Shown in pieces: positions 6,329 to 53,401 of a DNA stretch of 64,000 nucleotides. Both the position numbers and the translations under genes were made by a program. Source of the stretch: Escherichia coli (GTDB taxonomy: Bacteria; Pseudomonadota; Gammaproteobacteria; Enterobacterales; Enterobacteriaceae); the NCBI RefSeq assembly GCF_022846255.1, contig NZ_AP025682.1; one strand, written 5' to 3'. Below the pieces are notes generated by a model, which was not told where the DNA came from, did no database searches, and was given only the letters and a program-made list of their open reading frames with translations. The number at the start of each line of letters is the position of its first letter. Within the stretch, counting starts at the first letter, position 1.

Positions 6329-7132
6329 ATGAACGCATTATTAACCAATCCCTTTAAAGAACGTTTACGCAAGGGCGAAGTGCAAATTGGTCTGTGGTTA
6401 AGCTCAACGACTGCCTATATGGCAGAAATTGCCGCCACTTCCGGTTATGACTGGTTGCTGATTGACGGGGAGCATGCGCCAAACACCATTCAGGATCTTT
6501 ATCACCAGCTACAGGCGGTAGCGCCCTATGCCAGCCACCCCGTGATCCGTCCGGTGGAAGGCAGTAAGCCGCTGATTAAACAAGTCCTGGATATTGGCGC
6601 GCAAACTCTACTGATCCCAATGGTCGATACTGCCGATCAGGCACGTCAGGTGGTGTCTGCCACGCGCTATCCTCCCTACGGTGAGCGTGGTGTTGGGGCC
6701 AGTGTGGCACGGGCTGCGCGCTGGGGACGCATTGAGAATTACATGGCGCAAGTCAACGATTCGCTTTGTCTGTTGGTGCAGGTGGAAAGTAAAACGGCAC
6801 TGGATAACCTGGACGAAATCCTCGATGTTGAAGGGATTGATGGCGTGTTTATTGGACCTGCGGATCTTTCTGCGTCGTTGGGCTACCCGGATAACGCCGG
6901 GCACCCGGAAGTGCAGCGAATTATTGAAACCAGCATTCGGCGGATCCGTGCTGCGGGTAAAGCGGCTGGTTTTCTGGCTGTGGCTCCTGATATGGCGCAG
7001 CAATGCCTGGCGTGGGGAGCGAACTTTGTCGCTGTTGGCGTTGACACGATGCTCTACAGCGATGCCCTGGATCAACGACTGGCGATGTTTAAATCAGGCA
7101 AAAATGGGCCACGCGTAAAAGGTAGTTATTGA
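6329..7132 (+). CDS. rhmA: 2-keto-3-deoxy-L-rhamnonate aldolase (HpcH/HpaI family), 267 aa
   Basis: Protein recognised; last gene of rhm operon. Confidence 0.85.
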
Positions 7133-7172
7133 TATCAAAGGCCCATGGGGATCGGCTGTGGGCCTGTGTTAA

Positions 7173-7346
7173 TTAGTGGTTATTCGCTGCCAGATCGGCT
7201 TCGCTTAGCTGAGTGGCCGCGAGCACCTGATCACGATCAATGCCCTGCTCCAGCATGCGCAAAGCAATTTTAATGGCTTGTTCATGCATGCCTTCCTGCC
7301 AGCCAATTTGATGTCCTTCCTGCCGTAGCCGTTCAGCAATAGTCAT
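7173..7346 (-). CDS. ypaA: Small Rpn C-terminal-domain-only protein (RpnE/YpaA-like), 57 aa
   Basis: Hand-translated: [57 protein letters not shown]; paralogous to the last ~75 aa of the adjacent yfaD product; same SD-containing sequence attaatctctcctttt precedes it; below the 60-aa ORF-track cutoff. Confidence 0.6.
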   Translation of the reverse strand: MTIAERLRQEGHQIGWQEGMHEQAIKIALRMLEQGIDRDQVLAATQLSEADLAANNH

Positions 7347-7358
7347 TAATCTCTCCTT

Positions 7359-8318
7359 TTAATGACCGTTCGGAATATCAGCATCAGTGAGTTGGGTTGT
7401 CGCCAGCACAATCTCACGTTCAAAGCCCTGTTCCAGCATGCGCAAGGCAATTTTAATGGCTTGTTCATGCATACCTTCTACTTTGCCTTTCTGCAAACCC
7501 TCCAATTTCCCCTCCTGCCAGCCTTCTAATTTACCTTCCTGCCAGCCAATTTGATGTCCTTCCTGCCGCAGCCGTTCAGCAATAGTCATTAATCTCTCCT
7601 TTTGTAGTGGTGAACGTTCGGCAATCTCCTCAATAAAACGGGTGAAACGGGAGGTATCGCCGCATTGCAGCAGATAATTAAACAGCGTTTGTAGCTGGCT
7701 GTCATTAGTGAAGCCTCTAACCAAAAGCGTGGTAATCCTGTCGACCATACCGATTAAATCGCGGTCGCGAATATGCTTTTGAATCAGTTCCAGCAGAGCT
7801 ATACGCCGATGTTGCATGATCTCATCGTCAGGTACGATGGTGATATCCACCAACGGAAAAGCTTCGGTGTACAACTGCCGGGCAAGTTGCGGATCGTCAA
7901 ACTCATCCAGCCAGTTGAGTGAGTACGGGTAGGGCGAGGTTTCGCCATGATAAAACAGCAATGGTACCACCAGCGGAACTCTGTCATAGCCTTTATCCAG
8001 GTGACGTTGCATGGCGGCAGTGGCATAGCGCATTAGTCGAAAAGCCATATTCTTTTCTGCAGAACTTTGATGTTCAATCACGCAGTAGATATAGCCGTCA
8101 CCGTCGCTGGTTTCCACCGACCACAAAACATCCGAGTAGTAAGCGCGTAAACTTTTTTCAATAAAGCTGGTGGGTTCCAGGCGTAAGGTTTGCAGGTTGC
8201 AAAGCTTGCGCAGCGGCTCTGGCAGATGTATTTCGAGAAAATCTCGCGCCGTATCGGGCGAGAACATAAAGGTTTTAAATACCGCATCATGCGGGGAGGA
8301 GGTTGTTGATTCGGTCAT
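7359..8318 (-). CDS. yfaD: Recombination-promoting nuclease RpnB (PD-(D/E)XK, transposase_31/YhgA-like family), 319 aa
   Basis: N-terminus [17 protein letters not shown] typical of Rpn/YhgA family; C-terminal xxEG tetrapeptide repeats. Confidence 0.8.
7473..7544 (-). repeat. In-frame tandem repeat inside yfaD encoding [24 protein letters not shown] (three 24-bp units)
   Basis: Read directly from codons 7473-7544; the ypaA copy has only one WQEG unit. Confidence 0.7.
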
Positions 8319-8511
8319 GGTTGTCCGTCACCTGATGTTTATGATGACGCGACATTACGGTTATCCCAGGCCTTTGACATCTGCCAGTTTCAGCCTTTGC
8401 GAGACGTTTTCAGAGGAATTTTCACTGCGTTGCAACGTATACATTGAGCGCGGAATCGTGGACGCAAAAATGCCCGGTAACAACATGCTTACCGGGCATC
8501 AGATGGGAGTT

Positions 8512-12576
<4,065 letters not shown>

Positions 12577-53153: not shown

Positions 53154-53246
53154 AAAAAAAACCGGATGCGAGGCATCCGGTTGAAATAGGGGTAAACAGA
53201 CATTCAGAAATGAATGACGGTAATAAATAAAGTTAATGATGATAGC
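53154..53246 (-). ncRNA. micF: MicF antisense sRNA (93 nt), repressor of ompF translation
   Basis: Minus strand reads GCTATCATCATTAACTTTATTTATTACCGTCATTCATTTCTGAATGTCTGTTTACCCCTATTTCAACCGGATGCCTCGCATCCGGTTTTTTTT, ending in a hairpin plus U8 terminator; divergent from ompC. Confidence 0.9.
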
Positions 53247-53401
53247 GGGAGATATTCTAGTTGCGAGTGAAGGTTTTGTTTTGACATTCAGTGCTGTCAA
53301 ATACTTAAGAATAAGTTATTGATTTTAACCTTGAATTATTATTGCTTGATGTTAGGTGCTTATTTCGCCATTCCGCAATAATCTTAAAAAGTTCCCTTAT
53401 A

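Follow-up and report, generated by a model that had tools for sequence, protein, structure and literature searches.

A variable four-residue repeat carried by RpnE (YfaD) of Escherichia coli and by its predicted intragenic short protein

The analyzed stretch of Escherichia coli DNA (64,000 nucleotides of contig NZ_AP025682.1, assembly GCF_022846255.1; hereafter the window) contains a nuclease-like gene whose 3' part encodes a row of four-residue units ending in glycine, followed by a small gene with a single such unit. A sequence-only reading had taken this row for an expandable repeat. The locus raises the question of what the tract is, how its unit number varies and what a change in unit number might do to the proteins that carry it.

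Identity of the gene

According to our analysis, segment 7100-8400 holds one long minus-strand open reading frame (ORF), which by its sequence is a member of the Rpn (YhgA-like, PF04754) nuclease family and the orthologue of RpnE/YfaD. The gene, its nuclease domain and its neighbors are as follows.

7359..8318, minus strand: rpnE (yfaD), full-length ORF of 319 aa, the RpnE_L nuclease "toxin" form (ORF list, NF007418, synteny)
7692..8297, minus strand: PD-(D/E)XK/Transposase_31 (YhgA-like) nuclease domain, aa 8-209 (Pfam PF04754, E = 7.5e-88)
8512..9777, minus strand: glpC, flanking rpnE
6329..7132, plus strand: yfaU, flanking rpnE/ypaA

Against the ORF, the NCBIfam equivalog NF007418 reaches 707 bits (cutoff, 583), and the NCBIfam model for RpnA, which aligns its positions 1-256 to ORF residues 1-256 at zero offset, scores 416 bits, under its cutoff. 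The PF04754 match spans profile positions 1-202 of 203. Kingston et al. (2017) described the residues on which RpnA function depends (D11, D63, E82, Q84, and R94) and the PDDEI motif, and all five residues, together with D165 of the motif, are present here under the same residue numbers. The order glpC-rpnE-ypaA-yfaU is that of K-12 MG1655 (b2243-b2245), where b2244 (rpnE) and then ypaA (b4543) lie between glpC and yfaU, and the nearest complete genome has the same order. A gene between glpC and yfaU is YfaD and thus RpnE, the name RpnB belonging to YfcI (Kingston et al. 2017). The sequence-only reading had used two names for the gene, of which YfaD is borne out by its position, whereas RpnB has to be replaced by RpnE (YfaD, b2244) in view of NF007418 and the neighbors glpC and yfaU.

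Current annotation presents the locus differently. PGAP labels rpnE as "ISNCY family transposase" and in most genomes treats ypaA as a pseudogene fragment. It never annotates the internal product RpnE_S, and it names the C-terminal domain "Rpn/YhgA-type helix-turn-helix." The Pfam family precomputed by the protein database on small proteins of the RpnE_S type is PF27070. PADLOC, which has no Rpn model, returned one weak unrelated match only ("putative invertase," E = 8e-5).

Internal start and tandem copy of the short module

All five rpn genes of E. coli have been reported to contain an internal translation start from which a small C-terminal protein, RpnS, is made (Zhong et al., PNAS 2023, PMC10400941), and the same work cites dRNA-seq start sites inside all rpn genes. 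In the window, the sequence of rpnE likewise points to an in-frame internal start, preceded by a ribosome-binding site, for a small C-terminal protein, and the module made of both is present twice.

7594..7601, minus strand: Shine-Dalgarno (SD)-like AAGGAGAG, 6 nt before the internal ATG (direct reading)
7359..7589, minus strand: rpnE_S, predicted intragenic antitoxin of 76 aa from M244 (translation; homology to RpnA_S)
7351..7358, minus strand: second AAGGAGAG, the ribosome-binding site of ypaA, which overlaps the stop codon of rpnE and lies inside the 70-nt 99% duplicate
7173..7346, minus strand: ypaA (rpnE_Ss), free-standing tandem copy of rpnE_S, 57 aa (translation; K-12 b4543 at the same position)
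7290..7301, minus strand: single WQEG unit of ypaA, after HQIG (translation)
7173..7603, minus strand: head-to-tail duplication of the ribosome-binding site and RpnS module (copy 1, 7361..7603; copy 2, ~7173..7360)

The in-frame ATG (M244, 7589..7587) lies 14 codons upstream of the six variable units and occupies the start position of RpnA_S. In the numbering of RpnE_S, the xxxG register begins at residue 8 and the variable units at residue 16. A simple sigma-70 consensus scan of 7100-8560 gave no site. The two copies of the module are 99% identical over 70 nt (7291-7360 and 7534-7603), which cover the ribosome-binding site and the first 19 codons, and 81% identical in their tails (7194-7295 and 7377-7478). 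YpaA matches NF007418 at positions 244-308 (E = 7e-29) and has one WQEG after HQIG, in agreement with the single repeat unit first ascribed to it. According to Zhong et al. (PMC10400941), ypaA is a second copy of RpnE_S ("rpnE_Ss"), which is expressed and can be lost by deletion or fusion; RpnE_L, RpnE_S, and YpaA proteins were all detected in K-12, the last by SPA tagging.

The repeat tract

The tract consists of variable units preceded by two invariant ones.

7473..7544, minus strand: six variable xxxG units (sequence, Tandem Repeats Finder); unit number differs between strains
7545..7568, minus strand: two invariant leading units, RQEG and HQIG, in an xxxG register common with the six variable units

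Read on the minus strand from 7544 to 7473, the variable units are the codons TGGCAGGAAGGT AAATTAGAAGGC TGGCAGGAGGGG AAATTGGAGGGT TTGCAGAAAGGC AAAGTAGAAGGT, and rereading them reproduced exactly the boundaries and the peptide given by the sequence-only reading. The xxxG pattern itself is somewhat longer than first noted, RQEG and HQIG preceding the six units in register; in the alignment of 38 homologues these two are (almost) unchanged. Glycine thus recurs at every fourth residue eight consecutive times (residues 254, 258 ... 282 of the 319-aa protein), and since it makes up only 3.1% of the remaining RpnE residues, a run of eight anywhere in the protein would be expected by chance at about 3e-10.

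Tandem Repeats Finder reported positions 7474-7547 with a period of 24, 3.1 copies, 76% matches, and a score of 85, and an independent repeat search of the window agreed with it on the 24-nt register. Two classes of 12-nt unit alternate, encoding W/L-Q-E/K-G and K-L/V-E-G, with 8 to 10 of 12 bases matching within a class and 3 to 6 of 12 between classes, so that the true DNA period is 24 nt; the initial description of imperfect 12/24-bp repeats therefore resolves into two imperfect 12-nt classes in alternation. The longest exact repeat in the tract is 11 nt. Between the two copies of the WQEG-KLEG dyad, 5 of 24 nt have changed, none of them altering an amino acid, which indicates that the units are old and that the peptide pattern is under constraint. 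An assembly artifact was ruled out: the tract measures 72-96 nt, and the locus length is identical in 60 independent complete genomes (≥99.5% identity).

Structural relationship of the short domain to RpnA_S

The C-terminal domain of RpnE is homologous to the helical RpnA_S, the structure of which (7th0) is a 49-residue chain entitled "Recombination-promoting nuclease RpnA." In a phmmer search against the PDB, residues 1-13 and 41-72 of RpnE_S aligned to residues 1-13 and 13-44 of 7th0, and this alignment in two blocks indicates that the repeats are inserted within helix α1. The one-unit RpnE_S of K-12 is 40% identical to the 7th0 chain by BLASTP (E = 1e-8). An AlphaFold2 monomer model of RpnE_S, built on the 38 homologues, predicts that residues 3-54, with every repeat unit included, form one continuous helix and that a second, short helix comes after it, with pLDDT values of 87-91 in the core and only 55-59 in the repeat stretch; the top PDB match of the model in Foldseek was 7th0 ("E. 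coli RpnA-S"; probability, 0.99; target TM-score, 0.72). In the crystal structure of RpnA_S, the repeats lie in helix α1, at the dimer interface (PMC10400941).

The best PDB sequence match, a designed pentatricopeptide repeat protein, was rejected: it consists of eleven subthreshold stretches in which the C-terminal helix resembles helical repeats in composition.

Unit number among E. coli genomes

Of 5,426 complete E. coli genomes, 5,420 were matched by a megablast query with positions 7130-8330. Sixty genomes sampled at even intervals showed at least nine locus lengths, which were apart by 243 nt or by whole 12-nt steps, and 22 E. coli loci were decoded for the variable units after HQIG. Their nuclease gene has 1, 2, 3, 4, 5, 6, or 9 units and their YpaA 1, 2, 3, 5, or 7. 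Copy number across E. coli genomes was the check proposed for the repeat being expandable, and the number is not uniform, varying from 1 to 9 in the nuclease gene and from 1 to 7 in ypaA. The decoded loci (L numbers) are given below by their units in RpnE and YpaA.

RpnE 6, YpaA 1: window, L014
RpnE 6, YpaA 2: L004, L016, L017
RpnE 6, YpaA 3: L005, L018
RpnE 5, YpaA 2: L015
RpnE 4, YpaA 2: L006
RpnE 3, YpaA 5: L021
RpnE 2, YpaA 5: L009, L011
RpnE 1, YpaA 2: K-12 MG1655, L001, L012, L019
RpnE 9, YpaA 5: L007, L010
RpnE 9, YpaA 7: L002
Single fused gene with a YpaA-type tail of 1 or 3 units, lacking exactly one duplicate module: L003, L008, L020
rpnE truncated by IS2: L022

Of the 22 decoded loci, 21 have an intact rpnE ORF. 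Genomes that lack exactly 243 nt carry the single fused gene, and this arrangement accounts for about 40% of the sampled genomes. When undecoded rows of the 60-genome sample are assigned to the decoded class of equal length and score, the sample would comprise 35 two-gene loci, 24 fused ones (20 with one unit and 4 with three), and 1 disrupted locus; by the same assignment, the one-unit allele would be the commonest, and the six-unit allele would be carried by about 15% of the genomes.

Compared with K-12, which has 1 and 2 units in RpnE and YpaA, the window has 6 and 1, and nothing in it is different in kind. MG1655 b2244 encodes 299 aa with a C-terminal domain of 56 aa, and the window RpnE has 319 aa with one of 76 aa. 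As there is no length difference elsewhere, five extra units fully explain the difference, and the repeats do account for the excess of about 20 aa, as had been suspected. Beyond these genomes, a search of a 5.8-billion-protein collection with RpnE_S gave 239 proteins, mostly small-protein clusters among the best 120 that were examined; all parsable clusters among these 120 have repeat regions whose length is a whole number of 4-aa units, with 1-9 units in RpnE-type tails and 2-9 in YpaA-type tails.

Variation of this kind has been reported before. Zhong et al. (PMC10400941) described four-residue repeats that vary within the species in all E. coli RpnS proteins and YpaA, and the RpnL/RpnS systems of that work (with 7th0) agree with the window in the gene itself, the start at M244, the helical C-terminal domain, and the within-species unit variation. 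Their units, like those of the window, have four residues, of which one is hydrophobic and the other three are charged or Gly, and begin 8-20 residues after the internal Met. The repeat and its variability are therefore already known (Zhong et al. 2023), and both the first observations on this window and the present ones fall within that description. The only later literature that we found was the commentary accompanying that paper.

How and how fast the unit number changes

Some pairs of alleles match everywhere except for the clean gain or loss of a 24-nt block bordered by short repeats. The four-unit allele of L006 is that of L004 (six units) without TGGCAGGAGGGG AAATTGGAGGGT; L002 and L007 have the same RpnE accession (WP_000140602.1), and their ypaA genes differ by AAATTAGAAGGT TTGCAAGAAGGT. 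Such a pattern is compatible with slippage or short-homology recombination. Zhong et al. left the mechanism by which "these dodecamer repeats" expand open and speculated that the nuclease promotes changes in its own repeats (PMC10400941). For the window, a change in unit number would likely come about by slippage between the imperfect units, by recombination over their short homologies, or by exchange with the neighboring copy, ypaA.

The variation is between lineages and is not rapid. All of the 60 best-matching genomes (≥99.5% identity) have one locus length, 1,201 bp, in a ranking that slightly favors gapless matches and hence is not unbiased, and the three O157:H7 genomes in the evenly spaced sample all have a 982-bp locus. 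The tract had first been called prone to slipped-strand or recombinational change. In-frame variation between lineages fits that wording, but rapid change does not, given the single length of the 60 nearest genomes and exact repeats of at most 11 nt.

These findings bear on the view of the tract as a contingency locus, that is, a hypermutable simple-sequence repeat of the phase- or antigenic-variation type that switches frequently within clones. Its tandem structure and the copy-number variation between strains are what one would expect of such a locus. However, the 12-nt units are imperfect, with 11 nt as the longest exact repeat, and the length is constant both in the 60 closest genomes and in O157:H7; moreover, every variant is in frame, so that there is no on/off switching. 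We consider a contingency locus extremely improbable.

Function of the repeat and alternative explanations

RpnS proteins block the toxic, DNA-cleaving RpnL, as demonstrated for RpnA, RpnB, and RpnP2 (Zhong et al. 2023, PMC10400941). In RpnC, the only protein for which the repeat-number matching rule was shown, one repeat added to RpnC_S or RpnC_L abolishes neutralization unless both have it, and the plasmid paralogue RpnP2, the only one with demonstrated anti-phage activity, protects against T-even phages (PMC10400941). Against this background, we think it probable that the tract of the window is a specificity-setting helical repeat common to RpnE_L and its intragenic antitoxin RpnE_S and that it changes in rare in-frame steps of 12 or 24 nt. 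It would be a hypervariable 4-aa (12-nt) repeat in the first α-helix of the RpnE C-terminal domain, its codons read in two proteins, RpnE_L (319 aa) and RpnE_S (76 aa, from M244), of which the short one would, as in the Rpn family, act as the antitoxin by binding to the long one and blocking it. With every further xxxG unit, the helix that forms the RpnS dimer and the RpnS-RpnL interface is predicted to become longer, and repeat number would thereby set which short protein neutralizes which long one; since toxin and antitoxin share these codons, both would change together.

The anatomy, homology, helix prediction, between-strain variation, and lineage stability in this explanation come from the present analysis, and separate translation, antitoxin activity, and repeat-number specificity from Zhong et al. 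2023 (PMC10400941). Both antitoxin action and repeat-number specificity are inferred for RpnE by analogy with RpnA, RpnB, RpnC, and RpnP2. The RpnE of K-12, when overexpressed, was inactive in every assay, with no recombination, toxicity, or SOS induction (Kingston et al. 2017), and its RefSeq name is "inactive ... nuclease-like protein," so that a toxin-antitoxin role is putative for RpnE itself.

This inactivity is also the main ground on which the tract could be seen as neutral low-complexity drift, RpnE being a decaying inactive paralogue whose unit number wanders by slippage with no functional effect. The pseudogene label that PGAP gives to ypaA in most genomes, the interruption of rpnE by IS2 in one genome, and the collapse of two copies into one in about 40% of sampled genomes would fit such decay as well. 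Yet all six functional residues of RpnA are kept, the ORF is intact in all but one of the decoded loci, the xxxG pattern has been retained while the DNA of the units diverged at synonymous sites only, and the SD sequence and ATG are kept in both module copies; furthermore, the three proteins are detected in K-12, and repeat number has a measured effect in the paralogue RpnC (PMC10400941). Neutral drift is therefore deemed unlikely. The repeat could instead act as a molecular ruler: by lengthening a helical spacer, it would affect how two DNA-contacting modules of the RpnL dimer are spaced or arranged and so alter the nuclease target rather than, or besides, antitoxin pairing. Zhong et al. raised the analogy with the TAEL repeats of HsdS and reported that HHpred relates RpnS to helix-turn-helix motifs (PMC10400941), the PGAP domain name points the same way, and in a speculation of Kingston et al. 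the preference for particular DNA depends on the variable tail. However, RpnA shows little if any sequence preference in cleaving DNA (Kingston et al. 2017), and the sole measured effect of repeat number is on RpnS/RpnL neutralization (PMC10400941), which makes a ruler very unlikely to us.

Unequal unit numbers in RpnE_S and YpaA

In all 18 decoded two-gene genomes, a small and phylogenetically nonindependent sample with 11 distinct combinations, RpnE_S and YpaA have unequal unit numbers. This inequality is not stated in the available part of the text of Zhong et al. (2023, PMC10400941), and we regard it as a lead only. Synthetic loci with equal numbers (1/1 and 2/2 units) also served as queries against all E. 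coli genomes. Such a search joins gapped pieces and ranks by identity, and at the top of its best 12 matches stood the unequal genotypes from which the queries were derived.

If the equal-number rule of RpnC holds here, unequal numbers mean that YpaA is not a spare cognate antitoxin. YpaA might then be a noncognate "archived" allele, forming with rpnE a two-cassette device that switches toxin-antitoxin specificity, a reading that we hold to be unlikely; the 70-nt, 99% identical 5' flank would let ypaA and rpnE swap tracts by gene conversion or unequal crossover. Alternatively, equal-number pairs may be lost quickly by recombination, giving the fused genes of about 40% of genomes.

Comparison with other four-residue helical repeats

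Gly at every fourth residue of a helix, with a variable number of units, is likewise found in the GxxxG repeats of FliH/YscL (Trost and Moore 2009, PMC2674601) and in the deca-GX3 motif of Yae1/Lto1 (PMC4523923). FliH models gave weak matches to RpnE (E = 1.5e-7 to 3e-4) at aa 206-287, i.e., the repeat and its immediate flanks, and scores of the FliH-type models were 20-31 bits against cutoffs of 180-293; with matches confined to this region, there is no homology to FliH beyond the glycine repeat. Pfam PF09811 (Yae1_N) is precomputed on two database homologues, P0041 with nine units and P0051 with about ten. The resemblance to FliH and Yae1 is one of pattern, not homology. The biology of RpnE also differs, FliH/YscL being regulators of type III secretion ATPases and Yae1/Lto1 Fe-S adaptor proteins, and in FliH the unit number varies between species, unlike the within-species variation of RpnE.

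The TAEL repeats of HsdS (EcoR124I/II), a comparison drawn from the discussion of Zhong et al. (PMC10400941), are likewise four-residue, helical, and part of a defense-related protein, and a change in their number changes specificity. HsdS and the Rpn proteins are nonhomologous, however, and TAEL determines how far apart two DNA target-recognition domains lie (N6 versus N7), whereas the effect seen in RpnC concerns protein-protein pairing.

Implications

The locus exposes a weakness of current annotation, rpnE and ypaA being mislabeled and RpnE_S omitted by PGAP. For the Rpn family, it illustrates that a toxin and an antitoxin read from the same gene can have their pairing set jointly by a single run of codons, and such a system can diversify under phage pressure with its partners never uncoupled.

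Unit numbers in rpnE_S and ypaA

In all 18 decoded two-copy genomes (window 7173-7603; loci L001 to L021), the number of four-residue units in rpnE_S, the internal ORF of the nuclease gene rpnE, is unequal to that in its tandem copy ypaA. These genomes display 11 distinct rpnE_S/ypaA combinations, for example, 6/1, 1/2, 9/5, 9/7, 2/5, and 3/5. The inequality could be due to chance or shared ancestry; alternatively, equal pairs could be unstable or selected against. The second unit of rpnE in the window (7521-7532) is KLEG, encoded by AAATTAGAAGGC, while in the other decoded six-unit alleles it is KIEG, encoded by AAAATTGAAGGT. The window unit is similar to the KLEG unit found in ypaA of other strains, AAATTAGAAGGT, a similarity that may reflect past gene conversion of rpnE with ypaA.

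Fused and disrupted loci

The 243-nt duplicate module is absent in about 40% of the sampled genomes (24/60), which harbor instead a single fused gene of 300 or 308 amino acids consisting of the rpnE N terminus and a YpaA-type tail. The decoded fused loci are the following.

L003, E. coli CFSAN061768
L008, E. coli O157:H7 NE122
L020, E. coli MS15046

Unequal recombination across the 70-nt, 99% identical segment would be expected to produce such a gene. The locus is 982 bp long in all three sampled O157:H7 genomes; one of them, NE122, was decoded and carries the fused gene. A different alteration was detected in E. coli UTME-10 (L022, NZ_CP157104.1, 1-1832), where an IS2 insertion cuts rpnE after about residue 211, with loss of the entire RpnS domain and of ypaA.

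Annotation and neighboring features

In the window and in L001 to L023, PGAP names rpnE "ISNCY family transposase," leaves the internal product RpnE_S without annotation in every case, and treats ypaA (window 7173-7346), which it shows abutting the rpnE stop codon, as a fragmentary pseudogene ("incomplete; missing N-terminus"). Despite this label, a separate AAGGAGAG/ATG precedes and starts ypaA, and YpaA has been detected experimentally (Zhong et al. 2023, PMC10400941). The following terminator-like and RNA features were identified in the window.

7139-7165, G+C-rich hairpin of 10 pairs between the convergent yfaU and ypaA
49303-49493 (+), two adjoining copies of naRNA4 (CssrE), Rfam
53154-53247 (-), MicF sRNA, Rfam, 116.8 bits

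The hairpin, the sole terminator-like match in 7100-8560, is likely a bidirectional terminator. MicF and naRNA4 are commonplace in E. coli and have no connection with the rpnE repeat. No tRNA genes were found within the 64,000-nt window.

Frameshifted YpaA-like proteins

Among the database proteins matched by RpnE_S, the 75-amino-acid YpaA-like proteins P0069, P0071, P0072, P0076, P0080, P0084, and P0086, some of which are named E. marmotae or Escherichia sp., end in ...IDRDLAARSHPAKRSRSGSE. Some of their clusters represent at least 50 contigs. Since this ending corresponds to the usual YpaA tail read in an alternative frame, the lineages of these proteins share a frameshift, conserved among them, in the region of the third helix.
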